Origin: a virus
Lineage: Duplodnaviria > Heunggongvirae > Uroviricota > Caudoviricetes
Length of the DNA: 18,657 bases
Reading direction: 5' to 3' (one strand)
IMG/VR virus record: IMGVR_UViG_2923344815_000006
A program made the translations under genes and the position numbers. Positions 1-17,289 of this stretch are shown here, piece after piece. Below the pieces are notes generated by a model. The model saw nothing but the letters and a program-made list of their open reading frames with translations, ran no database searches and was not told the DNA's origin. Positions within the stretch are counted from its first letter, which is position 1. Every line of letters starts with the position of its first letter.

Positions 1-504
1 TTACTGATAGTGTTTTATGTTCAGATAATGCCCGATGACCTTGTCATGCAGCTCCACCGATTTTGAGAACGACAGTGACTTCCGTCCCAGCCTTGCCAGA
101 TGTTGTCTCAGATTCAGATTATGTCGCTCAATGCGCTGAGTGTAACGCTTGCTGATAACGTGCAGCTTTCCCTTCAGGCGTGATTCATACAGCGGCCAGC
201 CATCCGTCATCCATACCACGACCTCAAAGGCCGACAGCAGGCTCAGAAGACGCGCCAGTGTGGCCAGAGTGCGTTCACCGAAAACGTGCGCCACAACTGT
301 CCTCCGTATCCTGTCATACGCGTAAAACAGCCAGCGCTGACGTGATTTAGCACCGACGTAGCCCCACTGTTCGTCCATTTCCGCGCAGACAATCACATCA
401 CTGCCCGGTTGTATGCGCGAGGTTACCGACTGCGGCCTGAGTTTTTTAAGTGACGTAAAACCGTGTTGAGGCCAACGCCCATAATGCGGGCAGTTGCCCG
501 GCAT
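1..504 (-). CDS. insB: IS1 transposase InsB (made as InsAB fusion by frameshift)
   Basis: 167-aa translation recognised as IS1 InsB; overlaps insA in the -1 frame as in IS1. Confidence 0.9.
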
Positions 505-698
505 CCAACGCCATTCATGGCCATATCAATGATTTTCTGGTGCGTACCGGGTTGAGAAGCGGTGTAAGTGAACTGCAGTTGCCATGTTTTACGGCAGTGA
601 GAGCAGAGATAGCGCTGATGTCCGGCGGTGCTTTTGCCGTTACGCACCACCCCGTCAGTAGCTGAACAGGAGGGACAGCTGATAGAAACAGAAGCCAC
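423..698 (-). CDS. insA: IS1 protein InsA
   Basis: 91-aa translation ([23 protein letters not shown]...) recognised as IS1 InsA with zinc-finger cysteines. Confidence 0.9.
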
Positions 699-912
699 TG
701 GAGCACCTCAAAAACACCATCATACACTAAATCAGTAAGTTGGCAGCATCACCCACCATGCAGATAGTTAGCAATTCTTTAGTATCTTTTCTGCTCACAC
801 CAACCCCCTTTAGCGTTGTTTAGAATGGCAATCATCATATATCCAAGACATGGCATTTGGTACATAGCTTGGGTCGGGATTTCAAATCCGATCCCCGTTG
901 ATGGGGCCGTTA

Positions 913-1290
913 CAGTACGCGCATATCCGCTTTATGTGAAACAGGAAGATTTTTCTGATATCACTGCCACAGCAAAACACCAATTTCGTGACCAGTACGC
1001 GCGCGAGGGGTATCAGTTGCAAAAATTTTGCAACTACGTCCGACCAGTACGCACACGATGGCGGGGGATACCATGAAACTGTTCTCTACACGAGACAGAG
1101 TGGTGGTGATGTGTTGATTATCGGCGTATATGCGCACAGGACGCGCTATGACGATGTTTTATGCGGGTACACCAATCACATGTATCTGATGTGATAAATC
1201 GTGTTACATGACATCTCATGTTGTGCTGGTGGTTATCACGACGTTCTGAATCTGGCCTTTGCCTGATATTTTGCGACAAGTACGCGCGCG
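913..1290. repeat. Cluster of four copies of a (C/A)AGTACGCGCGCG-like motif plus a perfect 19-bp palindrome, in a non-coding region
   Basis: Motif copies at 913-922, 992-1005, 1044-1057 and 1277-1290; palindrome GTTGCAAAAATTTTGCAAC at 1016-1034; only short overlapping ORFs in the region. Confidence 0.5.
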
Positions 1291-1622
1291 TAGCATCGAA
1301 ATTATCGGATGGCGTATGCTGCTGGCAATATGAAGACCGATAGTATTAACCGAAAAGCGATTAAGGAGTGCCAACTTTTCAGTAGAGAAACTAGCCAGCA
1401 TAGGAAAATGTAGAAATTACCCAATTAATAGGTAAAAGTTATTGACACAGCCTGTAGTGGATAACGATATGAATAAAAACCACATATAGTGGTTTTTCGT
1501 GAGTGATGATAGTATCTATGTTAGTTTCCTAAGTAACTGTGCATTGACATGTGGATAACTTCGGATAGAGTTACAGGCAACCGAGCCCGATCCTCTGTTT
1601 CTCCGCCGCCGATTTCAGGCAT

Positions 1623-2645
1623 GTGAGTTTCACGGTCGGGCCTTTTATTATCTTTTGTTTCGCCACTATGATTGCCGCAAAGCCTCATAAGGACTATCAC
1701 GAATTGCTAGGATTGCTACTTGAACGTGGCATGATTATCAATGATCGAAATCGTGCGATACGTAAGCTGTCGCAGGTTGGATATTATCGATTGTCAGGTT
1801 TTTGGTACCCATCAAGAATTATTGCGACAACAGATAAAGGTCTTTCGTACAGAACAGACCGATTTCTTGCTGGTACCAGTTTCGAGAAGACGTACGATCT
1901 ATATCTTTTTGACAAAAAACTGCGTCTTTTGATGATTGATGCTATCGAAAGAATAGAGATTCATGTTCGTTCAGTCATCGCGCATGAGGTTGGTCGCAAT
2001 GATCCACTTGCCTACATGTCATCAAAATACATTAATCCAAAATTCTCATCTGCCTTCGAGCATTGGGTGTATAAGCAAAAAGTAAAATTAGACGAAAGCA
2101 GAGATGACTGTATTGAATGGCATCGAAGCCAAGGCAAGGAGATTCCATTTTGGGTGGCGGTGGAGACCTGGGATTTTGGTCAGATGTCTAAATATTATGC
2201 GATGCTTAATGGTCATATGCAGGGGAAAATTATACGTCGTTTTGGCATTGATAATAAGCAGACATTTGCAAAATGGTTGAAGTGCCTTAATCTCATAAGG
2301 AATCGTTGCGCTCACCATTCCAGAATATGGAATAGAAAGCATCCCCGAGTTCCAGTACCGGATAATGAATACTTTGACGGACTTAATCTCCATCCAGAGA
2401 GTTGCGAGAGGATTTTTAGCGCGATCTGTATTATCTGGTACTTAGTTAAACGACTTGGTCCGGGATCAACATGGCTTCGGCAAATTGCAGACCTTATTGA
2501 CTCTAAACCAAATGTTCCCGGATGTGGATATGATTCAATGGGTTTACCTGCTAAAGGATTCCCACGAGAGAGATTCTCTCAGGACTTAGGTTTTGTTATC
2601 GCCGACAACGACCCTGTAGCTGAAGGGCGGAAAGGGAGCGATTGA
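1623..2645 (+). CDS. Abi_2 family abortive-infection protein (AbiD/AbiF-like)
   Basis: N-terminal YHELLGLLLERGMII...YYRLSGFWYP and the RNRCAHHSRIWN motif are typical of the Abi_2 family; visibly AT-rich. Start uncertain (1623 or ATG at 1666). Confidence 0.75.
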   Translation: MSFTVGPFIIFCFATMIAAKPHKDYHELLGLLLERGMIINDRNRAIRKLSQVGYYRLSGFWYPSRIIATTDKGLSYRTDRFLAGTSFEKTYDLYLFDKKLRLLMIDAIERIEIHVRSVIAHEVGRNDPLAYMSSKYINPKFSSAFEHWVYKQKVKLDESRDDCIEWHRSQGKEIPFWVAVETWDFGQMSKYYAMLNGHMQGKIIRRFGIDNKQTFAKWLKCLNLIRNRCAHHSRIWNRKHPRVPVPDNEYFDGLNLHPESCERIFSAICIIWYLVKRLGPGSTWLRQIADLIDSKPNVPGCGYDSMGLPAKGFPRERFSQDLGFVIADNDPVAEGRKGSD

Positions 2646-2674
2646 GCGATAAATATCATTTATACACTGATCAA

Positions 2675-3115
2675 TTACTGAAGCAGCGTATTGATTCTTT
2701 TAATATTGTTACCCTGACGCTTCCACGCGCTGTAAATGTCTTTATCCCACGCTTTACCAGCTTTTGTTTGGTAGCCTGCTTCATTGAGCCGTTCCGCTAT
2801 CACACGCCCATTATCAAATCCCTGTCGGATGGTATCGGCAATGATCTTTATAACTGCCGTTTCGTTATATGGCTTTGGTGGGATGTTCGGCTTTCCGGCA
2901 ATAAGCGACGCAGCGGCTTTTTCCATGCGCTCCACCAGCCCAAGCATTCGTGAATCAATAGACTTTTCCGGCTGTCCCAGCTTCATGCGAATCGCATCAA
3001 CAAGCCAGGAGGTTTTATCCCCTCCAGAAGCGAGAACAGACCGATTAAACTCATCCTGCAATTCAGATGGGATGCGGAACGCGACCAGATTAGATTTGCT
3101 CATTGCAAAGACCAT
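2675..3115 (-). CDS. Hypothetical DNA-binding protein (RHH-like N-terminus; C-terminal LNEAGYQTKAGKAW recombinase-domain-like motif)
   Basis: 146-aa ORF convergent with the Abi gene, ending next to iteron block A; alternative ATG at 3103 (MSKSNL...). Confidence 0.55.
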   Translation of the reverse strand: MVFAMSKSNLVAFRIPSELQDEFNRSVLASGGDKTSWLVDAIRMKLGQPEKSIDSRMLGLVERMEKAAASLIAGKPNIPPKPYNETAVIKIIADTIRQGFDNGRVIAERLNEAGYQTKAGKAWDKDIYSAWKRQGNNIKRINTLLQ

Positions 3116-3216
3116 ATCAGTGAGTAATATCCATACAGTATACCACTGTATAACACTGTTATACGCTCAAATATCAGCCAGAAAATAACGGACCAATCAC
3201 AAAGCTATCGCTGTGT

Positions 3217-3338
3217 TGTTGGTTCAGAGCTGGGCTGTGTTGGTTCAAAATGAGTTGATGTTGGTTCAATATTTCAGAAAAAACACAATAAAAACAACGA
3301 TCTTTACAAATTGAACCAACTGAACCAACTGAACCAAC
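3217..3338. repeat. Iteron block A (origin-like): 3 direct TGTTGGTTCA repeats, AT-rich spacer, 3 tandem TGAACCAAC repeats
   Basis: Direct repeats at 3217, 3238 and 3259 (21-bp spacing); tandem inverse-orientation repeats at 3312-3338; near-identical block at 10049-10160. Confidence 0.8.
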
Positions 3339-3374
3339 ACCTTTTTGCTTATCTATATAATCTGAGAGGCAGAA

Positions 3375-3662
3375 ATGATAAGGGACAGGAAAGCTGAAGA
3401 ACTGGAGTCAAAAGGGCTATACCGGAGAGCTGCCGCACGATGGGCAGAAGTCATGATGCTGGCAGATGGCGATAAAGAACGTGAACATGCAGCAAACAGA
3501 CGCTCTGAATGTATCCGTAAGGCGGCACGCCCACCAGCAACTACAGACAGATTCGGAGATTTAAGACAGGCAGTTAAGCGGACTCATTCGGCTCTTGGTA
3601 TGGATGAGGAAGCGAGAGGGTATTTCAGGCGTTATCGCGATAAAGATTGCCAGAGACAGTAA
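3375..3662 (+). CDS. PerC-family transcriptional regulator-like protein
   Basis: 95-aa ORF; ELESKGLYRRAAARWAEVMM...RRSECIRKA resembles the PerC family common in E. coli prophages; GAGAGG Shine-Dalgarno upstream. Confidence 0.6.
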   Translation: MIRDRKAEELESKGLYRRAAARWAEVMMLADGDKEREHAANRRSECIRKAARPPATTDRFGDLRQAVKRTHSALGMDEEARGYFRRYRDKDCQRQ

Positions 3663-3920
3663 TGCTCTCTCTGTTTTGGCAAATTACCCCTCACTTTGAA
3701 GGGATCGGAGCTATAAAAATGGTGTTATCCGGCTTCCTGCATTGCAGGTTTTCGAAAGAATCAATGGGTTAGGTTATCGTGCAAATTTGCACTCTGCCAG
3801 CCAACGCAATTTCTCGTTGGCGGAAATATCAGGTATTTACTGAACGAACGGTCTACCCGCCTGTTCAACTACCAGTTGTACATGGCTGCTTTATGTGCAA
3901 ATGGTGGTGAGAGAAAATTG

Positions 3921-4022
3921 TTTGGGGGTACTTTTGGGGGTATCTCCAAAGATGTAACTGGAAAATGTCTTTATATATCAATGTATTTTTATTGTTTGTT
4001 TTGTTCCTATTATCGCACCATT
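3921..4022 (+). other. Distal att junction of the integrative element (arm-type sites plus imperfect core copy), inverted relative to thrW
   Basis: TTTGGGGGTACTTTTGGGGGTAT (3921-3943) matches rc of 17079-17104 next to the integrase gene; TCCTATTATCGCACCA (4005-4020) matches the tRNA 3-prime end with one 1-nt gap. Confidence 0.6.
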
Positions 4023-4254
4023 AAAATCAAAGAGTTACCCCATATTTAAATACACCACGTTTCCTCCTGTGCCGTATTTGTGCCATTGTAACCTTGGCAA
4101 TTCATCAAAATACTGTTCTGACATCAGGCAGTGCAGGTGCAGACATTTAAGCCAATTGCTGCCGCCATTCTTTGACGTAGTCAATCAGGGCGCGGAGCTG
4201 GTGATGCTGCCAACTTACTGATTTAGTGTATGATGGTGTTTTTGAGGTGCTCCA

Positions 4255-4530
4255 GTGGCTTCTGTTTCTATCAGCTGTCCCTCCTGTTCAGCTACTGACG
4301 GGGTGGTGCGTAACGGCAAAAGCACCGCCGGACATCAGCGCTATCTCTGCTCTCACTGCCGTAAAACATGGCAACTGCAGTTCACTTACACCGCTTCTCA
4401 ACCCGGTACGCACCAGAAAATCATTGATATGGCCATGAATGGCGTTGGATGCCGGGCAACTGCCCGCATTATGGGCGTTGGCCTCAACACGGTTTTACGT
4501 CACTTAAAAAACTCAGGCCGCAGTCGGTAA
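4255..4530 (+). CDS. insA: IS1 protein InsA
   Basis: Translation identical to the InsA ORF of copy 1. Confidence 0.9.
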
Positions 4531-4952
4531 CCTCGCGCATACAACCGGGCAGTGATGTGATTGTCTGCGCGGAAATGGACGAACAGTGGGGCTACGTCGG
4601 TGCTAAATCACGTCAGCGCTGGCTGTTTTACGCGTATGACAGGATACGGAGGACAGTTGTGGCGCACGTTTTCGGTGAACGCACTCTGGCCACACTGGCG
4701 CGTCTTCTGAGCCTGCTGTCGGCCTTTGAGGTCGTGGTATGGATGACGGATGGCTGGCCGCTGTATGAATCACGCCTGAAGGGAAAGCTGCACGTTATCA
4801 GCAAGCGTTACACTCAGCGCATTGAGCGACATAATCTGAATCTGAGACAACATCTGGCAAGGCTGGGACGGAAGTCACTGTCGTTCTCAAAATCGGTGGA
4901 GCTGCATGACAAGGTCATCGGGCATTATCTGAACATAAAACACTATCAGTAA
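4449..4952 (+). CDS. insB: IS1 transposase InsB
   Basis: Translation identical to the InsB ORF of copy 1. Confidence 0.9.
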
Positions 4953-4970
4953 GTTGGAGTCACTACCTGC

Positions 4971-5546
4971 ATGGTGTACTTTTCAATTTATTTTTGTGCA
5001 TACATGGTAGTCCCAGATGAGTTTGAACATGGCAGTATTATTTATTCCATAACATTCTATTTTTTAGAGCTAACACCAATTTTGGCTATCCTTTTGGCAA
5101 TACATATTTATTTTTCCTTAAAAAAAGAATCGACTAATTGGGAGAAGGTATGGAGAGACAGAGGATTTCTAACATCACCTAAAGATGATGCATATGAGAG
5201 TGATTTTTCTGACTTTATAACAAACTACTACTCCAGCGAACAATTCAAAAATAGACTGTCTGATGTTTGGGAAACAGCAATGTATTCCATAGGGATTATA
5301 TTATTGATACTTACTGGTATCGCTCAATATGTTTTTAACATTGACTTATCATTAAATCCTGAAAATTTAATATCGCCATTGATTTTTGGTGAGATATTGA
5401 TCTTCTCATTCGGAATTTTCTTGAGTGTTGTTCTCTGCTCATTATGCAAACTACTGACTAACAGGTATCCAGGTGAAGCAAGGAGAGCAAGAAAGGCAAA
5501 TCCATATTATCTTTTATTTCCTAATGGAGACAGCAGAGATATCTAA
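4971..5546 (+). CDS. Small integral membrane protein (3-4 predicted TM helices), 5-prime end disrupted by IS1
   Basis: 191-aa AT-rich ORF with hydrophobic stretches at about residues 1-13, 23-50, 103-122 and 133-162; starts 4 bp after the IS1 end; its predicted original start and first 15 codons lie at 798..754 on the minus strand. Confidence 0.6.
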   Translation: MVYFSIYFCAYMVVPDEFEHGSIIYSITFYFLELTPILAILLAIHIYFSLKKESTNWEKVWRDRGFLTSPKDDAYESDFSDFITNYYSSEQFKNRLSDVWETAMYSIGIILLILTGIAQYVFNIDLSLNPENLISPLIFGEILIFSFGIFLSVVLCSLCKLLTNRYPGEARRARKANPYYLLFPNGDSRDI

Positions 5547-5564
5547 GCCATCCATGGCTACCAG

Positions 5565-7670
5565 TTATTGAGCTTCTTTTTGTGATGCCTGTGCGACTCT
5601 GGTGAGCGATTGTGTGACCGTACTGATCGCTCTGTCATATGCTGTGCTACCTTTTGGCGTATTTGCCAGACGTAACAAGGCATTTCGTATAACAGGGCTT
5701 TCGTATGCCTTCGCTGCTCCGCCTACGGCACCAGCAGCAGGAACAACAAACGCAGCCGTTTTTAGCATCCCCGCTAATACTGCTGCGTTTATGATGCCAC
5801 CACCAACTAACAATCCATAAAGCTGCTGACCATTTAAGTTTTGAACGTTCGCTTTTGCCGCGTGTCTTGTATCGTTGAGGTATTTAATAACGCCGTCCAG
5901 TTCCTTTCCATGTACGCCTTTAAAGAAAGTTGCTGATTGCTTCCTGTTCCGGTGTAACGCATTAATAAACTTCTCAACACTGATATTTCCAGACGGATCA
6001 GTCGCCTTATCTACAGCATTCTGAACTATGGCTGCTCGTGCGTTTTGCCTACCATTGTCATCCAGAAGCCTGTAAAGCTGAGAACGTTCTGATGGGCTTT
6101 GGCTAAAAACGAGTTTTGTTACATCCTCAGGCGTGGCCTTGCCGCTGGCTATTGCCTTTTGAACGCGCGTTCTTCCCATCATGTCATTGAATTTAGACCA
6201 TGAGCGATCAACCCTTGCCATATTAATGGCTTCGTCTGCTCCAAGATTTTTGGCTACGGCTTTTTTCATATCCGCCGTATATGCCTTGTAGATAATATCG
6301 CTGGCTTTCTGGAGCGTATCTTTATCAACAGTGTCAGATGACGCCATAAATCGCTTTCGAAGATCGGTTCTGTTTTCCCTCGCCAGACGCAGGTCATTTG
6401 GTCCGCTGGTGATATCGTCTTTAAATTGCTGCAAGACTTTTACCGCGGCTCTATCCTGAGATTTGCCCGGGCGGCTTAACACGGCAATCTGATTGTCGAT
6501 AGCTTTTACCGTGTTTGAGAGATCGACAGGGGTATCCCCCATAGCGTCAATTATGCGGTTATATCGCTTTCCTGCTGCCTCAATGAATTTTTGTTGCCCT
6601 TTAGTCGCAGATTCATAAAGCTGTTTATCAGAAATGCCACCCAGACCATCGCTAAATGTTCTGACTAAATTTTCTCGTGCTTGTTGTTGATTCAGCCGAT
6701 TCTTACCGGTTCCAAAAAAAGGAACTCTTTCGCCTAATGTCTGAGCCTGACTCTGCATAAAGGTTTTATCTTTCAGCATGTCACTGGTCATTAACGGCAG
6801 ATTTCTTTCCGATGCAAAGTCGACAGCAGCCTTTGCTTCAGGCGACATATCACCACGAACAGCCCTCGAAACCGCACTCGCTGTATTTTCCAGCCCCTTA
6901 CCAATACCACCAATGCCAGCAGAAATTACCGTTTGTAACGGATCAATATCTTCTCCACCAGCAAGACTGGTGGCTCCCTGTAGTGCTAAATCTGTAGCTG
7001 CTGATTTTCCTATGGCACTAAGCACCGTTCCAGCCCTGCCCGCTGGTGTAAACGCCAACGCATTAGCAAGAAACGAGGTCAGGTCTTGCGGTGATAAACC
7101 CGGCTTGTTCAGGGCATAATCACCTGATGGCAGAGAAACGATAGTATTCCCCTTCTCATCCTGCCTTAATGTCGCCCCCATTCCCTGAAGAATCTTTTCC
7201 TGAGACGCGTCAGAGCCGAAAAGTTGAGACCATCCAGCCTTTAGGGCATCCATGCTTAGTGAGTTCAATTCTGGGGCAGAGGCGACATTTTGCAGTCTCT
7301 CCATCTCTGGAGTCATTCGGCTTTCGCCTGTTATAGCATCGCGCATCGCAGCCCCAAGACTGGCTCCCTGTTCTGCTGAACGCTCAAGCCCCTCTCTTTG
7401 CTGAGTAGCTAACTTTGCATACCCTGACGCAAGAGAATTATCAGATGATGTATGTTGAATATTTTGAGTTGCTGATTGGGATCGGTCTATTTCATTCGTT
7501 GATGGTAGTGGATAGGCAGCATAAAAAGCCTGCTTAGCCTGCTCTACACTTTCTCCGGCTTGCGGGGCCACGACTTCATTGAAGTATTGCTCCTGAGCCT
7601 GCGCTTTTTGTTCTGGTGCTAACGCCTGATACTGTGGAGAGGCGATAACATCTTTCCATGCTTTAGCCAT
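5565..7670 (-). CDS. Uncharacterised 701-aa Ala/Gln/Ser-rich protein with C-terminal hydrophobic Gly/Ala-rich segment
   Basis: Long ORF coupled to the upstream gene by a TAATG stop-start overlap; no enzymatic motif I recognise; hydrophobic segment LYGLLVGGGIINAAVLAGMLKTAAFVVPAAGAVGGAAKAY near the C-terminus. Confidence 0.7.
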   Translation of the reverse strand: MAKAWKDVIASPQYQALAPEQKAQAQEQYFNEVVAPQAGESVEQAKQAFYAAYPLPSTNEIDRSQSATQNIQHTSSDNSLASGYAKLATQQREGLERSAEQGASLGAAMRDAITGESRMTPEMERLQNVASAPELNSLSMDALKAGWSQLFGSDASQEKILQGMGATLRQDEKGNTIVSLPSGDYALNKPGLSPQDLTSFLANALAFTPAGRAGTVLSAIGKSAATDLALQGATSLAGGEDIDPLQTVISAGIGGIGKGLENTASAVSRAVRGDMSPEAKAAVDFASERNLPLMTSDMLKDKTFMQSQAQTLGERVPFFGTGKNRLNQQQARENLVRTFSDGLGGISDKQLYESATKGQQKFIEAAGKRYNRIIDAMGDTPVDLSNTVKAIDNQIAVLSRPGKSQDRAAVKVLQQFKDDITSGPNDLRLARENRTDLRKRFMASSDTVDKDTLQKASDIIYKAYTADMKKAVAKNLGADEAINMARVDRSWSKFNDMMGRTRVQKAIASGKATPEDVTKLVFSQSPSERSQLYRLLDDNGRQNARAAIVQNAVDKATDPSGNISVEKFINALHRNRKQSATFFKGVHGKELDGVIKYLNDTRHAAKANVQNLNGQQLYGLLVGGGIINAAVLAGMLKTAAFVVPAAGAVGGAAKAYESPVIRNALLRLANTPKGSTAYDRAISTVTQSLTRVAQASQKEAQ

Positions 7671-9148
7671 TAATCACCCCATAGTGAAGAAAAGTTACTG
7701 CTGGCTGCTGGCTGTGATACCTGCTCAGATTGCGGCAATGTCTGCGACGAAGAAGCAGTTCCTCTGTCAACTGCTGAAATAACCCGCAAAGCATCATAAG
7801 TTCGACCAGAAGCAGCTTTCAGCGAATTGAACTGGTTTTCCATCTTCCGGCGCTTGGTATCAATGGTTTTTGTGGAATCACCAGGCTGAGGGAAATACAT
7901 TTGATAATATTTGGACATTTCAGCTGGTAGGATAGATGCCCCTGTTTCCTGACGGAGTATTGCCATTATTGCGTCATTAGCATTAACAACGTATTGCTGC
8001 TCTGCTGGGCTGAGCGTTAAGTTAGCCAGCGTCCCATTACCCAAAGCATTATTAATGATCGCCACTCGCTGTGGGCTAAGCTGGTCTTTCAGTGTATCTA
8101 TTGAATCAAGAGCATCCCTAACCCTGTATGCAAATCCAGCAGCTTTTTTAGCCCCTTCTGGCGACTTTTCCATGATCTTTTGGGCTGTTGGCAAAGCTAT
8201 TGGACGAAACCCATCTCCAGATATTGGCTGGTTTAGTTTTCCCTGCTCTTCACTTCCGTCTGTGTAGTATTTTGTGACAGTGCCATCATCGTTTTCTCTA
8301 ACACTCATTAATTTTTTGGCGTTTGTATTAATTCCAGCCGCTGCCGCAAATGCCGCCGCCCCCTCTGGATCCGCCTTTAACATTTGAGCGTACTGATTGT
8401 AATTCTGCATTGCTGCTGTTGGTGCATATGCTGACGTTAACGCATTTGCTCGGCTAATATCCTGCCCTCTCGCCTGAAGTGCTTCGCCAGCCTGATTGCT
8501 GCGGATTGTCTCTGCCAACTTGCCACGCTCAATATCCCGACCTTCCATTTGATCTTTGATATCGAAATACTTCTCATGACCGAGAGAAAACAGCGCCAGA
8601 TTACCTGCGAAATGCTGGAAGCCCTGCGGGTCATTAACCTGCATTTCAGCAATAGTTTCTGGAGGGATACCTAAACGACGCATCTCCTGCTCATTATCCA
8701 TCATGAACCTGCCAAATGCGCCCTGACCAAGCGATGAGGCTACCTGTGCTTTGAGCGCCAGATTGCCATAATCATCCCTTTGAGCATCATCGACATAACT
8801 CATCCCTTTACGGACTTCCTCAAACTCTTCTGGGAATGCTGTAATAAGATTACGCATCTGCTCCCTGTCACCGGACGCATAAGCATCTGCATAAGCTTTC
8901 TGGAATGCCGCTTTACGCTCCTGCTGTTGCTGCTGCTTATAAATATCAGCAACGCCAGCCAGACCACGAAGACCTGTCAGAGCAACGTTATTTGCACCTG
9001 AGCGAGCCAGTTCATTGTTTTCGCGGATCAGACCAAGCGTTGCGTTAATGTCGCTTGCCTTTGGCGCATTCTCATTTTGCGTACCGATGCCAGCCAGAAA
9101 ACCACCAGAATTAATACCCTGTTGCCACGTAGCCATTGATTTACCCAC
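7670..9148 (-). CDS. Uncharacterised 492-aa Ala/Gln-rich low-complexity protein
   Basis: Long ORF; probable true start is ATG at 9136 (MATWQQ...) rather than the GTG at 9148; poly-Q stretch and Ala-rich tracts. Confidence 0.7.
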   Translation of the reverse strand: MGKSMATWQQGINSGGFLAGIGTQNENAPKASDINATLGLIRENNELARSGANNVALTGLRGLAGVADIYKQQQQQERKAAFQKAYADAYASGDREQMRNLITAFPEEFEEVRKGMSYVDDAQRDDYGNLALKAQVASSLGQGAFGRFMMDNEQEMRRLGIPPETIAEMQVNDPQGFQHFAGNLALFSLGHEKYFDIKDQMEGRDIERGKLAETIRSNQAGEALQARGQDISRANALTSAYAPTAAMQNYNQYAQMLKADPEGAAAFAAAAGINTNAKKLMSVRENDDGTVTKYYTDGSEEQGKLNQPISGDGFRPIALPTAQKIMEKSPEGAKKAAGFAYRVRDALDSIDTLKDQLSPQRVAIINNALGNGTLANLTLSPAEQQYVVNANDAIMAILRQETGASILPAEMSKYYQMYFPQPGDSTKTIDTKRRKMENQFNSLKAASGRTYDALRVISAVDRGTASSSQTLPQSEQVSQPAASSNFSSLWGD

Positions 9149-9314
9149 GTCCAGTTAAAGTGTAAGCCAGCGCCTTATCCATTAATCCCCGAGCAATTTC
9201 GTGGATCGTTGGCGCAACTCCTACCTCTGATTTTTTACGCTGCTCCTCCTGAATTTTCTTTATCGCTTCCATTTGCTTCTCACTTATCAATACTGGCTTT
9301 ACTGAAATAGCCAT
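9141..9314 (-). CDS. Small 57-aa protein, possible ribbon-helix-helix regulator (not in supplied ORF track)
   Basis: ATG at 9314 preceded by AAGGGGG Shine-Dalgarno; translation MAISVKPVLISEKQMEAIKKIQEEQRKKSEVGVAPTIHEIARGLMDKALAYTLTGRG; stops 5 nt before the 492-aa gene ATG. Confidence 0.5.
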   Translation of the reverse strand: MAISVKPVLISEKQMEAIKKIQEEQRKKSEVGVAPTIHEIARGLMDKALAYTLTGRG

Positions 9315-9348
9315 AACGCCCCCTTAGAACTGTATAAAACAACAGTCA

Positions 9349-9378
9349 TTATAGTTTCATAAAACGCAACATTCATCA
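9349..9378 (-). promoter_or_regulatory. Putative promoter of the 57/492/701 operon (consensus -10, weak -35)
   Basis: TATAAT on minus strand at 9354..9349, about 35 nt upstream of the 57-aa ORF start; no good -35 hexamer. Confidence 0.3.
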
Positions 9379-9407
9379 TTGTGATTGCAAAATATGAAAC
9401 AAATAGC

Positions 9408-9442
9408 ACAAAAAAATGCCACCGTTCAGTAGCTGGTGGCAT
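9408..9442 (-). terminator. Rho-independent terminator downstream of the 153-aa gene
   Basis: Minus-strand hairpin with 8-bp stem ATGCCACC/GGTGGCAT and 11-nt loop, followed by a run of 7 T. Confidence 0.7.
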
Positions 9443-9494
9443 CGTTCTGTATGTCAGGTTTTGACAGTTTTTTTATGGACTCTAAAAACTATAT

Positions 9495-9956
9495 TTATGG
9501 AGTCGCATTACTCTTCATGGCGTGAGCTTTCCTGTTCTCTCTTTGTTCCTGGTTCCATGGATAAGTGTAATTGCCACCAGCAAAGACCATATTGATTTTG
9601 TGAGGAACCATTAAAGCGATATCAGCACTCATGTCACTGAATGAAACACAGTGCAGACGTTCAAGCCATTTGTATGCTGCTGCCGCTTCTCCCCACAAAT
9701 TAATCCCTGCAAGTTCAACAATATCTCTGATGGAGCAGATATCAACCATCCCGTTAACGCCTGTAAAACGGCGTTTAAAGTCGCCAAGATACTTTCTGAA
9801 AAGAGTTGCTTTCATTGGTTCAGAAAGGTCTATGTATGGGAACACAACCACATCAAGCAGCATCTCCCTTCTGTTGTTCATCGGTATTACAGATGGCAAA
9901 TCGGATACTTTGCCAAATACATGATGAAAAGCCTTTGCGATTATCTTCATCATCAA
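9495..9956 (-). CDS. Hypothetical 153-aa protein
   Basis: ORF with GGGAG Shine-Dalgarno; probable start ATG at 9953; between iteron block B and its own terminator; no recognised motif. Confidence 0.6.
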   Translation of the reverse strand: MMMKIIAKAFHHVFGKVSDLPSVIPMNNRREMLLDVVVFPYIDLSEPMKATLFRKYLGDFKRRFTGVNGMVDICSIRDIVELAGINLWGEAAAAYKWLERLHCVSFSDMSADIALMVPHKINMVFAGGNYTYPWNQEQRENRKAHAMKSNATP

Positions 9957-10048
9957 TCTCCCACTGAAACCAGTGATGTGGTGTTCAGATTTCGTAAAAC
10001 ACTCTCTAATGCCAGCCAGATGTTGTGCTCATCAATTCAGTCACGTTG

Positions 10049-10160
10049 TGTTGGTTCAAAATGCCGTGTTGTTGGTTCAGTGTTGGTTCAATAAAAAGAA
10101 TAAAATCCTTATAAAACAATACTCTTTACAAATTGAACCAACTGAACCAACTGAACCAAC
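10049..10160. repeat. Iteron block B (origin-like), same organisation as block A
   Basis: TGTTGGTTCA at 10049, 10070 and 10081; tandem TGAACCAAC at 10134-10160; shares CTTTACAAATTGAACCAACTGAACCAACTGAACCAACACCTTTT with block A; lies just 3-prime of the helicase-like gene. Confidence 0.8.
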
Positions 10161-10185
10161 ACCTTTTCTACGCACATGAAGAAGC

Positions 10186-11316
10186 TCATTCTTCAGATGA
10201 GTTGTAATCTCCTGGCTGGTAATTGAGTACATAAACGTTTATTTGTCGTCCCTGAATACGTGGTGATTTTCTTTGGTATCCACGACCGCTGTTTGGTGGG
10301 GTTAGCATCCCGGCTTTTTTCAACACTTCAGCAAACTGTTTTGCGTTGAAACCACATGCGATCTCCTTTTCAAATGTGGCCGGGAATGTGTAGAAAATCA
10401 TTGGGCTTTCGTCATGTTCTCCACGCTGACGGTATCCGGCTAAATCTTTGATGGGCAAATCTGCCGGGCTGTATGGAAATGGTGCAAAACGGCTAAGCCC
10501 ATAGGCATTAAGAAATGCCTCCGTTTGTTCAATAATCTGCTGATGCTCTTTGTTACCTGTGCCGAACTCGCGCAACCATGCGTTATAGCTGTGCTGTATC
10601 GCATCACGGCATGTCTGAGCATCCCAGCCTGTTACAACCTCGCCTAACAACAATGCGGCCTCCAGAATGGCAAATCGCGCGGCTACACGGTGAACCTGCT
10701 CACCATAATCGGATGGGATCAGGCTTCTCCATCTGCTTTCGCAGTCACGAACAGTTTTAATAGCCTGTTGCTGGTGGTCTGCCAGCCATTTAATCCACTC
10801 ACGCCCGGACGCGCCGTGGTGATGCTGGTAAGCGTCTTTCAGTGCGTCTGCGTGCTGTTTTCCGTTCTGGTAATCGTGAAAGCGTACTGCTTTACTCAAC
10901 GGAATATTCAGCAGTCGCACCATTTGCCCGGCTTTGGTTTTTCGCCCGGAAGTAGCGATAAATGTTTCTAAATCCATTTCTCCGGTGCTGATTGCCACTG
11001 TACGCCAGCGTTTTAGATCCCGGTTTCCACCATCTTTAGCGCCTTGCAGTTTCCCTACACCGTTAAATAACGCATAGGCAGACTGTGAAACACTGACAGG
11101 ATCAGCGCCCTGACCAACTTCATCAAGCGGCATTAGTCCGTCATTGTGGGCGGCAGCTTCATTTGCCAGCCCCAGCGCGGTTCCGTACCACGTCAGCCGC
11201 AGTAAATCAGGGTTGCCGTATAAGCTGCTCGCCACGTTTGCCGTGGTGGTCTTACCTGCGCTCGACTGCTCATAGAAATGAATGCCGAACCCGTCAGCGC
11301 CCACCAGCCCAATCAA
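10186..11316 (-). CDS. DUF927/SF3 helicase-like replication protein (P4 alpha / PICI Rep C-terminal type), apparently 5-prime-truncated
   Basis: Walker A (SSAGKTT) within ...AAHNDGLMPLDEVGQ...RWRTVAISTGE...KAGQMVRLLNIP, typical of the DUF927 helicase domain; ORF-track start is a TTG; in-frame stop at 11374-11376 with no ATG upstream. Confidence 0.65.
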   Translation of the reverse strand: MIGLVGADGFGIHFYEQSSAGKTTTANVASSLYGNPDLLRLTWYGTALGLANEAAAHNDGLMPLDEVGQGADPVSVSQSAYALFNGVGKLQGAKDGGNRDLKRWRTVAISTGEMDLETFIATSGRKTKAGQMVRLLNIPLSKAVRFHDYQNGKQHADALKDAYQHHHGASGREWIKWLADHQQQAIKTVRDCESRWRSLIPSDYGEQVHRVAARFAILEAALLLGEVVTGWDAQTCRDAIQHSYNAWLREFGTGNKEHQQIIEQTEAFLNAYGLSRFAPFPYSPADLPIKDLAGYRQRGEHDESPMIFYTFPATFEKEIACGFNAKQFAEVLKKAGMLTPPNSGRGYQRKSPRIQGRQINVYVLNYQPGDYNSSEE

Positions 11317-11429
11317 TGGCGCTGCCAGTGCTGCGCCGATCCCGGTCAGCCCAGCACATGAGGCCAGTTGTTTTCAGACGCACTGATAACCTGACGGATA
11401 AGATCAATGTTTCGCATTCTGGCCCCCGT

Positions 11430-12032
11430 TTAGTGCGTCACTGGTGCTTCTGGGATGCCGTTTTCGTTTAGTTCGGCAATAAAGCTGTTGTGAAGATCGG
11501 CAAGCACTTCTCGCCCAAACGAAGTGAGTGTTCCCTGTTCGACATCGAACATGTTGCTGTAAAAAATGATGGCATTCTTTGTTCCGACATCAACACCATA
11601 TTTCTCGATCATTGCGCCCTCAATGTTGTTTGCCATAGCGAGGCGCTCTGCTACTGGATACAGCGGCATGGCGACGATGCCATTGGAATAAACAGAAACC
11701 ACGGAATGATTGCCACTGTCATCAATAATGCTGACGGTGCCGTTTCCCTTTCTCATTTCATTGATGAATGCTGTTGCTATCAGCCAGCGCCACATAATCA
11801 CGTGATGCTGTGATGTGTAATCGAAATATCCCTGGTTGCCGCCACTGGCAATAGCGAGATGTATAAACATGCCTTCATCTGGTTTATCGTCATAATCCCC
11901 GGCATCCAGACGATTTACGGCATCAATATATGAGACGGTCTCAACGCGTTCTGTCATGCCATCGTTGCTGCGGTGCATGATGTTTACGCCGTCAGGCGTT
12001 GCTTCTGCATGGAAGGTTAAGAAATTATTCAT
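11430..12032 (-). CDS. Hypothetical 200-aa protein (upstream of the helicase-like gene, different frame)
   Basis: ORF-track ORF 11430..12137; probable start ATG at 12032 (MNNFLTF...), overlapping the upstream gene stop by 8 nt. Confidence 0.5.
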   Translation of the reverse strand: MNNFLTFHAEATPDGVNIMHRSNDGMTERVETVSYIDAVNRLDAGDYDDKPDEGMFIHLAIASGGNQGYFDYTSQHHVIMWRWLIATAFINEMRKGNGTVSIIDDSGNHSVVSVYSNGIVAMPLYPVAERLAMANNIEGAMIEKYGVDVGTKNAIIFYSNMFDVEQGTLTSFGREVLADLHNSFIAELNENGIPEAPVTH

Positions 12033-12246
12033 GTTTCGCCTCGCCTGAATGATTCTGTAACTCATATTTGCCCAACAATTCGTCTGCTTCCTGAATAGCT
12101 TCTGGTACGCCATTGAGCAGTGACATAACCGCGCCAATCATTAACTTGTCTCTGTTGCTGGGGCTGGCCCCTTCAAGCCAGAACCCTAAAACAGTCTGAA
12201 CCTGTTCGATGCGACATTGCGCTTCAATGAGCTGGATGTTGGTCAT
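12025..12246 (-). CDS. Hypothetical small protein (73 aa)
   Basis: ATGA stop-start overlap with the upstream gene at 12243-12246. Confidence 0.5.
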   Translation of the reverse strand: MTNIQLIEAQCRIEQVQTVLGFWLEGASPSNRDKLMIGAVMSLLNGVPEAIQEADELLGKYELQNHSGEAKHE

Positions 12247-12506
12247 TTCGCACTCTCCACATCGATTAAACTGATATCTATCAGGGAGGTAACTTTTTGT
12301 AGCCAGCTATTGATTACTGTCGCCTGTTCCCCTCCCACCGAGGGAATAATCTCATTCATCACATGAACCAGACCTGTGCGCGCTCTGGTAAGCCGTTCAG
12401 TCGCGCAATCTGCGGGAGTGAATGTGTCTGGATATGGCTCTTCGCGCCCCAGCAATGATTCAATTTCCAGCTCACACGGATGACGATAAATTAAGTTGAT
12501 ATTCAT
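12243..12506 (-). CDS. Hypothetical small protein (87 aa)
   Basis: ATGA stop-start overlap with the upstream gene at 12503-12506. Confidence 0.5.
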   Translation of the reverse strand: MNINLIYRHPCELEIESLLGREEPYPDTFTPADCATERLTRARTGLVHVMNEIIPSVGGEQATVINSWLQKVTSLIDISLIDVESAK

Positions 12507-12697
12507 TTTTCACCCCCAAGAATTACCAGCTCGGCACGGGCATCGTTAACCAAAGATGAGCACGCTTTAATCGCATCCACGACATCAGCAGCGTCCATTT
12601 CTTCAGCCGAAAGACTGACAGCAACCAGGACAGCCGCTGCTTGCTCGATTAATTGAAGTGCGGACGTAAGGCGAGGGGTATTAATTGAGTTATTCAT
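12503..12697 (-). CDS. Hypothetical small protein (64 aa from ATG 12697; ORF-track alternative start 12754)
   Basis: Internal ATG ([10 protein letters not shown]...) 8 nt upstream of the preceding gene stop, consistent with the coupling seen along this gene chain. Confidence 0.45.
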   Translation of the reverse strand: MNNSINTPRLTSALQLIEQAAAVLVAVSLSAEEMDAADVVDAIKACSSLVNDARAELVILGGEK

Positions 12698-13757
12698 TGG
12701 TTGCCCCCGTTTTGCATGGCATTTGTCCACCTTCCAGCAGGAAATGAACGTCACGAACGGCGAGATCCAATATCGCGAGTAACGCCTTCAGTTTTTCGTC
12801 TCGTGAGGGAGAGTTGCTCACCAGAATGTCATTAATCACTTCTGTCAGTGTGATGATCTGGCTTGTGCGTTCGAGGGGATCCATATGCACATCGTAGGTT
12901 TTAATCATGTGCCACCTCCATGCGGATACGACCAGCAAAAAAGCAGACGTGATCGCGCACCAGAGAACGGCGAGCATCGCGTTCAGACTCGGCAGCAATA
13001 TGATGAATTTTGGCGGTAATTGTCGGGCAATCGCGGCGAACTGCGGCGATAATCCAGATAAATTGCGGTTTTTGGGTAGGGGTAGTAGCCAGCATGTGGC
13101 AGCCTCCATTCGATAGCATGTAACGCTACCACCGGAAACGCCAATTTCGCTGGTGGTAGCCCAGACAGGGTTGGCGTAACCGGCTCGAATGGATACCGGC
13201 GCTTCCGAAGAAGCCCCTGCCTGAGCCACCATTGATTGACAAAGGCGCTGGATTATACACCAACGCCCAAAAAATGGGTGAGTCAGACCTACGACATAAA
13301 AAAAGACGCTCGGCGCGTCATATGTCGCCATTCGATTTACCAGGACGCCAATCCCGGCACCCGTTTTATGAGGTGCCTTATAACCATAAACCGTGTTGCC
13401 GCATAACGGCAAGCTCTTTTTTATGGACTCCGAAAACTCACTATTGGAAGAACCAGAAGCACAGTACATCGCGCTCATTTCGTTAACGTCACGCGCGTGG
13501 ACGAATGTTTTTGTGGAGTCACTACACGAGCAGAACAGGTCATCTACGACCAGAAATTCTCTGGCGCAGCCGCTGACCTTCTCAACGCTAACATCATCGA
13601 CCGTGATTTCTGACATAGTTAAGGCATCCGCTCCTACCACCAGCAAATGATAAACTTTGCTTGTATCTGCTGTATTAATGCCTGACTTTGCTGTCATATT
13701 GCTGGATTTTGGCGACATGCCAGCCAGTGAAAATGTCTTCTTCTGGGCGGTTAGCAT
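12690..13757 (-). CDS. Long ORF of uncertain coding status; C-terminal 72 codons from ATG 12907 look like a genuine small helical protein
   Basis: 356-codon open frame coupled to the upstream gene, but the central part is Trp/Cys-rich and not protein-like, and 12900-13120 is open in three frames. Confidence 0.3.
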
Positions 13758-13933
13758 TTGTTAACCTCCGCGAACTCCTTCATGAAACGTGCCAGCGGTT
13801 GTACGCATGGCGATTGATACCCGTCGCGATAAAACGTCACTCGGTTGTGAGACACGCTTTCGACAGTAACGAGTGCTCCGTGGGCATCTTTGTAGCGTTT
13901 TTGAGGTTGTGGTGTTCCTGTCGGCTTAAACAT
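13751..13933 (-). CDS. DUF4222-like small phage protein
   Basis: 60-aa product from ATG 13933 (ORF-track ORF starts at 14020); RYKDAHGALVTVESVSHNRVTFYRDGYQSPCVQPLARFMKEF resembles the DUF4222 family. Confidence 0.6.
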   Translation of the reverse strand: MFKPTGTPQPQKRYKDAHGALVTVESVSHNRVTFYRDGYQSPCVQPLARFMKEFAEVNKC

Positions 13934-14759
13934 GGACCGCCTCCAGACGCTTAGCGAGCCAGCGTTGCGACAGGCGGGTGAGTTCTCCTTTGCGCTGCTC
14001 ATATTCCATGCCCATATCAATTAACGTGATATTGGTGCTTTCGAGATATGAGAGGTGCTCAAGCTGTTCTGCGTTCATATGGTCGCGAGGTTCGCCAGAA
14101 TAGCCATTTATCCGCGCCCACTGCTTAGCAGTTAGCCCACCAAGAACGATACGAGAAATCATATTGCTCTCGTTTGTGTAGTGGTGTTGCTGCGTCGTTT
14201 TCCCCTGCTCGGCACGGGCCATGTTCAGCGCATCGCACATTGGCTTAAAGTTGTTTGCGGCACTGATACGGGCTTTTAGCTGGCGACGATAGCGGGCGGC
14301 GATTTCAGGAACGCTACGCTGTAATTCTTCCTCGCACTGGATGAAATAACGACGGATAGCGCGACCCTGATCATTGCGTTCGATCATTGCCAGTTCTTTC
14401 GCCATTCCGACACTTAACAGATAGTCTTTGCCGGGTCTGCCAGAGTGCTTAATCTTGCTGTAAGCCGCGCCATTCGGGCTTTTCCCCAAATTTGGGGAAA
14501 TTGTTTTATGGACTGAGTAATCGTGCCCAATGGTGAAGTCATATTCAGAGATGCGATCAGTGATCCATGTAGAGAAGTCTTTTCCCACGCCCAACGCTTT
14601 GTGTAACGCTTTTGCGCTAACAATATTGGTTTCACGCCCACCTATATGACCAGGAATAACCGGGACAATTGCGGCAAATTCATTACCGTTAATTGTGCCC
14701 AGAGAGGCGTTCAGATGAGGGGCAGCCTCAGAAATTAATCTGCTTTTTTCGATGTTCAT
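13926..14759 (-). CDS. Phage antirepressor-like protein (Bro-N / KilAC type)
   Basis: 277-aa ORF; DYLLSVGMAKELAMIERNDQGRAIRRYFIQCEEEL is characteristic of antirepressor DNA-binding domains; GGAG Shine-Dalgarno. Confidence 0.65.
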   Translation of the reverse strand: MNIEKSRLISEAAPHLNASLGTINGNEFAAIVPVIPGHIGGRETNIVSAKALHKALGVGKDFSTWITDRISEYDFTIGHDYSVHKTISPNLGKSPNGAAYSKIKHSGRPGKDYLLSVGMAKELAMIERNDQGRAIRRYFIQCEEELQRSVPEIAARYRRQLKARISAANNFKPMCDALNMARAEQGKTTQQHHYTNESNMISRIVLGGLTAKQWARINGYSGEPRDHMNAEQLEHLSYLESTNITLIDMGMEYEQRKGELTRLSQRWLAKRLEAVHV

Positions 14760-14771
14760 TTTCAGTCTCCG

Positions 14772-15203
14772 TTAGGCGGCGTTAAACGCGTCCGGGTAGA
14801 GTTTCAGAATGTCGGCAATTTCCTGCTGAGAAAGTCCGTTGTGATCATTTATGTTCGCAAGATGGTTAATATGAGTGATCACTTTCAGAACATCACCACG
14901 GCAGGAGAAACGGTAGCGAAGGTGTGTTCCGATACCATCAGGATTCTTTTCGTCGATACGCTCCAGAGTGATTCCGAGCTGGCGTTCTAACTCTGTTGCA
15001 TAGTTACGACCAGAAGACAGACGGCAGTAGCGAAGAATGTCATTTTCTGTCCATCCCTCTATACCAGTACGCAGCATATAGACTCGGGCACGATGCTTTT
15101 TCGGCGTGCGCTTTGGTGCTTGAAGGGATTTTGTCAGGGGCGTAACATCAGATACGCGAATATCTGAATTAGCCGCCTGTAATGGGCGGTTTTTCTTTTC
15201 CAT
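14772..15203 (-). CDS. Hypothetical phage-related protein (143 aa)
   Basis: ORF coupled to alpA by a TGATG stop-start overlap; basic N-terminus; no recognised motif. Confidence 0.55.
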   Translation of the reverse strand: MEKKNRPLQAANSDIRVSDVTPLTKSLQAPKRTPKKHRARVYMLRTGIEGWTENDILRYCRLSSGRNYATELERQLGITLERIDEKNPDGIGTHLRYRFSCRGDVLKVITHINHLANINDHNGLSQQEIADILKLYPDAFNAA

Positions 15204-15406
15204 CAGGCCACCTCGTCTCTAGATTCTAATATACACTTCTCAATCCATTCATCTATTTCAGACTCAACAAAAGCAATTGCCCGACTTCCAATTTTTACCT
15301 GTTTAGGGAACCTCCCCTGACTAATAAGACGATAAATCCATGCTTTGCTATAACCAGTTCGCCTTTGAACTTCAGAGAGACGAATTAATGAATTGTAATT
15401 AGCCAT
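15203..15406 (-). CDS. alpA: AlpA-family transcriptional regulator (excisionase-like HTH)
   Basis: 67-aa product IRLSEVQRRTGYSKAWIYRLISQGRFPKQVKIGSRAIAFVESEIDEWI matches the AlpA family; located next to the integrase gene. Confidence 0.85.
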   Translation of the reverse strand: MANYNSLIRLSEVQRRTGYSKAWIYRLISQGRFPKQVKIGSRAIAFVESEIDEWIEKCILESRDEVA

Positions 15407-15833
15407 TTATTAATATCCTGTACTAATGACGCAATAACCCCCTCCTGCAACGAATGGCGAGAGTTTTATTTGCGTCAAATGTCGAATACGCCAAAGACCA
15501 CAATATGAAAAACATATTGCGGTCTTTTATAAAAGATAGTCAGATTGTTTTGGTTTGTTTGCTCCACAAGGGTAGAGCTACCCTGCATTTCGGCAGGATC
15601 ACGCTATTAGGCGTGACATCCAGTAGTTTTAAAGAACAATTGCGCTTTGTCAGCGCCAAAGCCTGTTAAAGAACATTCCGCTTTTCAGCAGCGTAGAAGG
15701 CTCAATACACCTTCGTTTATAAAAGAGCGATTGCCCTTCTCCAGGGCTAACTGTTAAATAGCAATCCTCTGTGAGTTTTTATCAATCTACTCCCCTATAC
15801 TTTAGTAAACCTCTGTATACTTGTCCAGTTGTT

Positions 15834-17048: not shown

Positions 17049-17049
17049 T

Positions 17050-17213
17050 TGGGGGTACCTCCACTAAACCGAACAGCAAATACCCCCATAAGTACCCCCA
17101 TCTGACCGTAGATTTTGAGGGACTTTAGTAGACGTCAAAAGACGAACGGGGCTTTAATACGTGGATTATAAGGGGTTTTGAAAGACTTTAGTAGACTTGG
17201 GGAGATGTTTGAA
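17050..17213 (-). other. Proximal att arm between tRNA-Thr and integrase, with arm-type repeats
   Basis: GGGGGTA-type motifs at 17051-17057, 17082-17088 and 17094-17100; 13-bp direct repeat GACTTTAGTAGAC at 17121-17133 and 17184-17196; same arm motif recurs at 3921-3943. Confidence 0.6.
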
Positions 17214-17289
17214 TGGTGCCGATAATAGGAGTCGAACCTACGACCTTCGCATTACGAATGCGCTGCTCTACCAACTGAGCTATATCGGC
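17214..17289 (-). tRNA. thrW: tRNA-Thr (anticodon CGT)
   Basis: Reverse complement reads GCCGATATAGCTCAGTTGGTAGAGCAGCGCATTCGTAATGCGAAGGTCGTAGGTTCGACTCCTATTATCGGCACCA: canonical cloverleaf, CGT anticodon, CCA end. Confidence 0.95.

Follow-up and report, generated by a model that had tools for sequence, protein, structure and literature searches.

A very probable recent IS1-generated inversion at the edge of a prophage-like island by thrW

The window analysed here, a stretch of 18,657 nucleotides, contains two IS1 copies in opposite orientation, and the question it raises is whether the DNA between them has been turned around relative to related genomes and, if so, by which route. The sequence-only reading of this window had proposed that IS1 inserted here and that inverted copies then recombined, flipping 3.4 kb. 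Our analysis indicates that the locus very probably carries a real and recent IS1-generated inversion at one end of the prophage-like island that lies by thrW in an enterotoxigenic E. coli. The rearrangement is clean and ordinary, of an already known, textbook kind.

Copy 2 (positions 4200–4967, plus strand) is complete at 768 bp, the size given for IS1 in PMC12428005. Its left end (IRL, 4200–4222) is GGTGATGCTGCCAACTTACTGAT and its right end (IRR, 4945–4967) is ATCAGTAAGTTGGAGTCACTACC; the pair GGTGATGCTGCCAACTTACTGAT / GGTAGTGACTCCAACTTACTGAT forms the imperfect terminal inverted repeats of about 23 bp that characterise IS1. It contains insA (4255–4530) and the overlapping insB' (4449–4952), which match the NCBIfam model NF033558 (transpos_IS1) with 91.9 and 147.2 bits, respectively, and the A6C motif for the −1 frameshift, AAAAAAC, is found at 4506–4512. 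Copy 1 (1–753, minus strand) is cut by the start of the window and thus lacks here the final 15 bp at its IRR end. Over the 753 nt that can be compared it is 100% reverse-complementary to 4200–4952, with 3,446 nt between the copies; hence the two are indeed identical and inverted, as had been claimed. Both IRL ends face inwards, that of copy 1 being at 753. The identity of the copies is uninformative as to their history, since the IS1 of FMU073332, situated at another site, is also identical to copy 2 at 768 of 768 positions.

We denote as T the 9-mer found at 754–762 and 4968–4976, and as D the 9-mer at 4191–4199. Next to the IRL of copy 1, on its inner side, T reads CACCATGCA (754–762), and this is the reverse complement of TGCATGGTG (4968–4976), which adjoins copy 2 on its outer, IRR side. 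These are the only two positions of the T 9-mer in the window, and each directly abuts an IS1 end. A 9/9 match between two positions fixed in advance has a chance of 4^-9, about 4e-6, and the length agrees with the 8–9 bp reported for IS1 target duplications (PMC12428005). In IS-free relatives there is one T 9-mer, exactly at the junction, where CACCATGCA stands between AAAAGTA and GATAGTT. Since it is single there and doubled here, the T 9-mer is, judging from these sequence comparisons, a true target duplication made by IS1, with its halves now on different IS1 copies, and the flank match had been interpreted correctly.

The segment between the copies (754–4199, 3,446 bp) comprises the terminal 3.27 kb of the thrW island together with 177 bp of yagP' from the adjoining chromosome. 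In all relatives examined its orientation relative to the sequence from 4977 onward is the opposite one, and the breakpoints of the inversion are exactly at the IS1 ends. The closest complete genome, the O6:H16 ST4 ETEC strain 2011EL-1370-2, has the segment uninverted and no IS1 at either breakpoint. It differs from the window by three mismatches in 12,271 bp, none of them in the flipped segment (100% identical), and therefore the event is recent. The ancestral order, as seen in 2011EL-1370-2, is proA-thrW-int-...-gp20-gp16-sieA(-), then T, then Abi-orf146-perC-attR-yagP', then D, then paoDCBA; the window has the T-to-D stretch turned around, with the two identical inverted IS1 copies at its borders.

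The uninverted order is general. At least 80% of the collinear T-to-D span is present in 66 complete genomes, all of the more than 20 loci inspected are uninverted, and fifteen loci have the IS-free arrangement with a single T 9-mer. When SieA', Abi, gp16 and the primase remnant were used as queries, every match was either an uninverted locus or a short contig interrupted at IS1; the loci found with Abi and gp16 were all uninverted, and some of them were islands located elsewhere in the chromosome. The inverted junction without IS1 occurs in none of 5,426 genomes. Thus the 3.4-kb inversion stands, and so does the expectation that related genomes would carry the uninverted arrangement, with none showing the inverted order and lacking IS1.

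The second junction is visible from one side. The D 9-mer, CGCGGAGCT (4191–4199), forms the inner (IRL) flank of copy 2, and its predicted partner, AGCTCCGCG, would lie left of the window. If the inversion is read in this way, the sequence there should be ...CACCAAAGCTCCGCG followed by GGTAGTGACTCC, then the remaining yagP' and paoD; at the left edge of the window we would expect ...GCAATATTGCACCAAAGCTCCGCG directly before GGTAGTGACTCCAAC, the remaining 15 bp of the IRR of copy 1. Exact searches with the predicted and the observed junction patterns gave no match in genome contigs and metagenome contigs, and the copy-2 configuration is absent from the 5,426 complete RefSeq E. coli genomes. The predicted chimeric YagP'-IS1 product (ending in NIAPKLRG and a stop) is absent from 15 billion proteins, where the native 136-aa form is present; this is a weak negative, as yagP' gene calls vary between assemblies, two of the loci having none. 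Five complete genomes with IS1 near yagP' were considered as candidate D-site insertions and rejected: in two (H45 and H41) the copies are at other positions, and in the remaining three the spans are larger than an insertion at D would give.

Which route, then, produced this layout? We favour, at about even chances or slightly better, an insertion of IS1 into T followed by intramolecular replicative transposition onto D. IS1 would insert at T, and the transposase would then attack CGCGGAGCT, located in yagP' at a distance of 3.4 kb on the same chromosome. Each IS end would join the opposite target strand, that is, transposition would proceed 'in trans', and replication across the element would yield a second, inverted copy and flip the intervening DNA in a single event. 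A strand-joining derivation of this route gives A-T-[IS]-D'-B'-T'-[IS']-D-C, which is the observed layout. The IRR-T-sieA junction is also found in draft genomes of the O6:H16 ST4 strain 99-3165 (JHJW01) and in the run SRR5296512; the draft contigs L003 and L004 start at it. Because the T junction occurs in other samples and the protein expected at the outer D-side junction is absent, the latter being a weak observation, the sequences suggest that an intermediate with IS1 at T only exists. The same footprint has been read as a one-step inversion for IS26, and the IS1 family has been called apparently replicative (PMC4471558). The IS1 donor copy was kept in all intrachromosomal events tested (PMC12428005), although donor retention is no proof of cointegrate-type chemistry.

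The alternative closest in probability, which we rate as a serious contender at clearly less than even chances, is that of two simple IS1 insertions in opposite orientation, at T and at D, each with its direct 9-bp repeat, after which RecA-dependent recombination flipped the segment and swapped the repeat halves. This two-step route derives exactly the layout observed, and IS1 copies are known to generate inversions in E. coli by recombining with each other, an example being the 1.49-Mb 'RRE-IS1' inversion of the long-term evolution experiment (PMC4173774). Independent donors are abundant, with at least about 40 IS1 matches per chromosome in the lineage, and IS1 targets this neighbourhood repeatedly: FMU073332 has an insertion at window positions 1192–1199 with an 8-bp repeat, and strain 10035776-3 carries IS1B in yagP' and has lost the pao operon. 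On the other hand, the route requires three events instead of two, and neither a simple D insertion nor both insertions in the uninverted state were seen in the 5,426 complete genomes or in the protein look-up. The end structure fits both routes equally, and the footprint by itself does not separate one-step replicative inversion from insertion and recombination. Hence the insertion-then-recombination history proposed in the sequence-only reading holds as far as the footprint fits it, but it loses its exclusivity, as one-step replicative transposition yields the identical end product.

It is quite unlikely that the orientation is an assembly artefact or reflects a mixed population, in which two simple inverted insertions surround a segment that is ancestral or flip-flopping and the assembler chose the orientation. 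Short reads cannot orient a segment between 768-bp inverted repeats, and segments in such a position can be mis-oriented in assemblies. An in-silico flip of 754–4199 indeed produces two perfect simple insertions, with copy 2 flanked by TGCATGGTG as a direct repeat; within the lineage, draft assemblies are interrupted at these IS1 copies (L003, L004), and no other genome of the collections searched has the same configuration. However, the continuity of the window through both copies implies that long reads or finishing were used, and 5 kb is a length readily spanned. Moreover, inverted insertions 3.4 kb apart would recombine anyway, so that the inverted isomer would exist. Extremely improbable is an origin as a composite transposon with inverted IS1 ends, similar to Tn1681, that came from elsewhere, or as a programmed site-specific invertible switch. 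Inverted IS1 copies around a few kilobases do resemble a composite transposon, but in all relatives the cargo natively adjoins the two flanks, including the shared 9-mer and the continuous yagP' frame; a unit-inserted transposon was thus rejected, the cargo being contiguous with the flanks instead of foreign. The island does encode a tyrosine recombinase, but the borders coincide with IS1 ends and with neither att nor short invertase sites, one border is situated outside the island, in the chromosomal yagP', and no invertase gene was found among the ORFs in or beside the segment. The programmed switch was rejected on these grounds.

Among the described systems, the layout is most readily compared with the IS26 'in trans' inversions (He et al. 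2015, mBio, PMC4471558). There, too, opposite IS copies bracket the inverted segment, the two copies of one target duplication are in inverted orientation, one adjoining the first IS on its inner side and one adjoining the second IS on its outer side, and a relative with the uninverted order exists. The IS26 case concerns the IS6 family, an 8-bp duplication and a resistance plasmid, whereas the present one concerns the IS1 family, a 9-bp duplication and the edge of a chromosomal island, with one flank pair of the two visible. Inversions by IS1-IS1 recombination in E. coli and Shigella (Raeside et al. 2014, mBio, PMC4173774) likewise have inverted IS1 at both breakpoints. Such inversions usually span far more DNA (up to 1.5 Mb) and arise between pre-existing distant copies; here the segment is 3.4 kb, and neither IS1 copy is present in the closest relative. 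The work of Turlan and Chandler on IS1-mediated adjacent deletions and replicative intramolecular rearrangements (1995, EMBO J, as cited in PMC4471558) concerns this very element, and the chemistry proposed is the same, with the IS end attacking a site close by within one molecule; going by its title, that work covers replicative deletions and excised circles, whereas the outcome here would be an inversion.

The island attaches at thrW, tRNA-Thr(CGU), at 17214–17289 on the minus strand, with the attL core at 17212–17230; its tyrosine integrase (15834–17048, minus strand) has the Pfam domains Arm-DNA-bind_3, Phage_int_M and Phage_integrase. The attR core (4005–4022), TCCTATTATCG-CACCATT, matches the 3' end of thrW (17212–17230) at 18 of 19 positions on the opposite strand. 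It is inverted relative to the attL core in thrW because the segment is flipped. An inverted att junction had been noted at 3921–4022; the inversion of the core and its explanation by the flip are upheld, but the core occupies 4005–4022 only. Next to it lies the 3' end of the LysR-family pseudogene yagP' (4023–4199, minus strand, stop codon at 4147–4149), which is the chromosomal flank and is cut at the D site. This flank is found in 3,330 genomes including K-12, where the annotation is that of a LysR substrate-binding domain protein, and it adjoins paoD in relatives. Since attL and attR are inverted and separated by IS1, the integrase can probably no longer excise the island, which would be immobilised.

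On the other side, the gene for a SieA-like membrane protein (4971–5546, plus strand; a weak precomputed match to PF26849, SIEA) is truncated. The native form has 204 aa and a GTG start preceded by AAAGGGGG; IS1 now separates what is left of the gene from its promoter, its ribosome-binding site and the initial 13 codons, and the remaining 191 aa are an exact suffix of the native protein. With the start, ribosome-binding site and promoter lost, the sieA-like gene is probably inactivated.

IS1-bounded composite transposons include Tn9 and the ST-toxin transposon Tn1681 of ETEC. The architecture here is analogous, in that inverted IS1 copies surround three intact genes: an abortive-infection-like gene of the Abi_2 family (1668–2645, plus strand; Pfam PF07751, E=2e-52; 'Abi family protein' in RefSeq), orf146, encoding a 146-aa hypothetical protein annotated in relatives, with no Pfam or NCBIfam match (2675–3115, minus strand), and the gene for a PerC-family transcriptional activator (3375–3662, plus strand; Pfam PF06069, E=3e-33). 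These genes would now form an IS1-bounded module that could in principle move as a unit, although, unlike Tn9 and Tn1681, the structure was made in place from resident DNA and not inserted as a unit. The most far-reaching interpretation, namely that a single IS1 transposition locked a thrW satellite or prophage remnant by flipping attR, disabled a superinfection-exclusion-like gene and packaged Abi_2 and the PerC regulator into an independently mobile composite transposon, seems unlikely to us. A repeated motif at 913–1290 was considered as a target of an island antisense RNA of the C4/CI type and rejected, as there is no complementarity of 9 nt or longer.

The inversion has little significance beyond this strain. 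It is a natural example of how flank bookkeeping, that is, noting which 9-mer stands beside which IS end, reconstructs a rearrangement. The inverted att sites also have a practical consequence, as att-based finders of islands and prophages will therefore mis-call the boundary of this island.

The window holds one complete IS1 of 768 bp (copy 2, 4200-4967), with its left terminal repeat at 4200-4222 (GGTGATGCTGCCAACTTACTGAT), the right one at 4945-4967 (...ATCAGTAAGTTGGAGTCACTACC), insA at 4255-4530 and insB' at 4449-4952, both matching NCBIfam transpos_IS1, and the frameshift site AAAAAAC at 4506-4512; the element passed all IS1 membership tests. Since 4200-4952 is the exact reverse complement of positions 1-753 (753/753), the latter are, judged by sequence, a second copy in the opposite orientation (copy 1), cut by the window edge 15 bp before its right end. 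The IRL ends of both copies point inward, at a spacing of 3,446 bp. The 9-mer abutting copy 1 (754-762, CACCATGCA) is the reverse complement of the one abutting the right end of copy 2 (4968-4976, TGCATGGTG); it has no further occurrence in the window, and two fixed positions would agree over 9 bp by chance with a probability of about 4e-6. The sequence-only reading, which had noted two identical inverted copies with reverse-complementary flanks, is upheld here.

The same reading proposed that the 3.4-kb segment between the copies is inverted, and comparison with relatives agrees. In MY732, FMU073332, 2011EL-1370-2 and all other inspected loci the order is of the ancestral type, thrW - int - ... 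- primase - gp20 - gp16 - sieA-like(-) - Abi(+) - orf146(-) - perC(+) - att core - yagP' - paoDCBA. There the reverse complement of 4977 onward joins 763 onward via a single CACCATGCA (...AAAAGTA-CACCATGCA-GATAGTT...), and window position 4199 is followed without a break by the remainder of the LysR-family pseudogene yagP' and then by paoD. The collinear span is kept to at least 80% in 66 complete genomes. Neither the window's LysR'/sieA junction minus IS1 (such an order without IS1 had been named beforehand as contrary evidence) nor the copy-2 configuration was found (each 0/5,426 genomes). The sieA-Abi-orf146-perC end is also present in two relatives' loci (L014, L016) whose island occupies another place in the chromosome, which marks this end as the ancestral architecture.

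The att core (4005-4022, TCCTATTATCG-CACCATT) matches the thrW 3' end (17212-17230) on the opposite strand, whereas the relatives have both as direct repeats; the att junction is thus inverted, as had been noted. Since 4023-4199 is chromosomal (present in 3,330 genomes including K-12), the inversion has one breakpoint within the island and one beyond it. By these comparisons the segment is truly inverted with respect to all the relatives. Three of the four features of an IS-bounded inversion are seen in the structure; the fourth concerns the outer flank of copy 1, left of the window, which is expected to be AGCTCCGCG, within the predicted sequence ...ATTGCACCAAAGCTCCGCG-GGTAGTGACTCC...

Let the ancestor be A-T-B-D-C, where T is the 9-bp site at 754-762/4968-4976 and D that at 4191-4199 in yagP'; the reverse strand of the window is then A-T-[IRR..IRL]-D'-B'-T'-[IRL..IRR]-(D)-C. 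Strand joining was derived for intramolecular replicative transposition, with a target staggered by 9 bp and each 3' end of the IS attacking its opposite strand. The window structure comes out exactly, whether the IS starts at T and attacks D or starts at D and attacks T. It comes out just the same if two simple insertions arise independently in inverted orientation and the copies then undergo homologous recombination with each other. Hence the footprint proves IS1-mediated inversion, but not its route: the earlier reading was right about the former, while recombination between the copies is not singled out.

We give even or slightly better chances to one-step intramolecular replicative transposition, in which IS1 would first have been at T and then attacked D in a single event. 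The same footprint as here was read as one-step inversion for IS26, and IS1-family elements were named apparently replicative (PMC4471558); IS1 makes duplications of 8-9 bp and retained the donor copy in all intrachromosomal events studied (PMC12428005). Two independent inverted insertions with subsequent recombination are a substantial, though lesser, possibility: IS1 copies are proven to cause inversions by recombining with each other (PMC4173774), but after IS1 at T this route needs two events as against one. The IRR-T-sieA junction is also seen in other samples (draft contigs L003 and L004). At the outer D junction the IS1 end contributes a TAG, so that the predicted protein is a YagP' with the ending ...KLRG*; this protein is absent among 15 billion sequences, the native 136-aa form being abundant. 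The two observations suggest the existence of T-only intermediates, with T as the site struck first. The local evidence leans slightly to the one-step route. The identity of the two copies is uninformative, since the lineage is rich in IS1 (roughly at least 40 matches per chromosome) and the FMU073332 IS1, at a different site, is identical too (768/768). Mis-orientation or a mixed population, the segment lying between 768-bp inverted repeats, is very improbable, and any other explanation has a negligible chance. An imported composite transposon and an invertase switch were also considered, and the structure fails the test for each. The case adds a new example to a textbook phenomenon, of an already known kind.

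With attL and attR inverted and IS1 between them, integrase-mediated excision should be impossible. The native sieA-like gene encodes 204 aa from a GTG start, which is preceded by a strong ribosome-binding site (AAAGGGGG); IS1 has cut off the first 13 codons of the gene together with all that precedes them, and a 191-aa suffix from ATG 4971 is left. The right end of copy 2 (4945-4973) puts GGAG (4957-4960) 10 nt upstream of this ATG, and the truncated ORF is codirectional with insAB' transcription, so IS1 read-through might still express the 191-aa SieA-like product. Abi_2, orf146 and perC are all intact. That one IS1 event both locked the island and made a mobile IS1-Abi-perC transposon is unlikely and, if true, of modest interest.

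Several enterotoxigenic E. coli genomes match the segment between the copies at 100% identity. Among complete genomes the closest is that of O6:H16 ST4 strain 2011EL-1370-2 (CP022912.1), with no mismatches over 754-4199 and, over 4962-17232, 12,271 bp aligned with 3 mismatches and no gaps. This identity ends at 17232, within the att core (loci L020/L032, left of the island integrase); at the place of the window's thrW-proA the strain has a second, DUF6538-type integrase and more phage-like genes, which suggests that it carries another element in tandem at thrW. Draft contigs of Logan run SRR5296512 and of O6:H16 ST4 strain 99-3165 (JHJW01 record; PMC5607484) begin within the IS1 right end and are 100% identical to window 4940/4949-8567. 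The FMU073332 IS1 (7986-8753 of its locus L001, equivalent to window 1192-1199) is an identical element 430 bp from T that shares the orientation of copy 1; its repeat is 8 bp long (TGATAAAT), and there is no inversion. In strain 10035776-3 (L030) IS1B in yagP' is joined straight to ykgJ', the pao operon apparently having been lost via an IS1-adjacent deletion. Judging from these two strains, the neighbourhood has been struck independently by IS1.

The right end of the window carries tRNA-Thr(CGU) thrW (17214-17289) and proA (17404-18657). The adjoining island is, by its gene content, integrase-bearing and P4-like: it has an integrase (15834-17048), an AlpA-type regulator (15203-15406), an AntA-domain antirepressor-like gene (13926-14759), an Ash-family ORF overlapping Rfam C4 and isrK matches, and a TOPRIM-DUF927 primase, of which a remnant ORF is left (10186-11316). 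Relative to the 918-aa primase of FMU073332, a 1,523-bp out-of-frame internal deletion (11347/11348) takes away the TOPRIM part along with the initial two-thirds of the DUF927 domain. The island was thus already in decay; 2011EL-1370-2 shares this deletion, and records of its product are limited to four contigs. Relatives' loci L021-L023 and L027 have other deletions in this primase region.

P22-type late genes form a contiguous block, gp20 (PF16928) and gp16 (PF26808) with the SieA-like gene (5565-9148 and 4971-5546), and relatives (loci L010-L019) add P22 gp7 and DUF2824. In P22 the gene order is 14-7-20-16-sieA, and P22 integrates at thrW too. The island looks like a satellite that has fused to the right end of a P22-like prophage, the two having formerly lain in tandem.

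The motif GAC(C/A)AGTACGC(G/A)C occurs four times at 913-1290, in the gene-free DNA that separates sieA from Abi, with a looser copy at 13477-13499 near the isrK/C4 region; it has no complementarity of at least 9 nt to the C4 and isrK RNAs. Iteron-like repeats TGAACCAAC / GTTGGTTCA form two clusters with up to 95% identity over 55 nt, one between orf146 and perC (3215-3345) and the other immediately downstream of the primase gene (10047-10167). The pair recalls the ori/crr pair of P4, and the relative orientation of the two clusters has been altered by the inversion.
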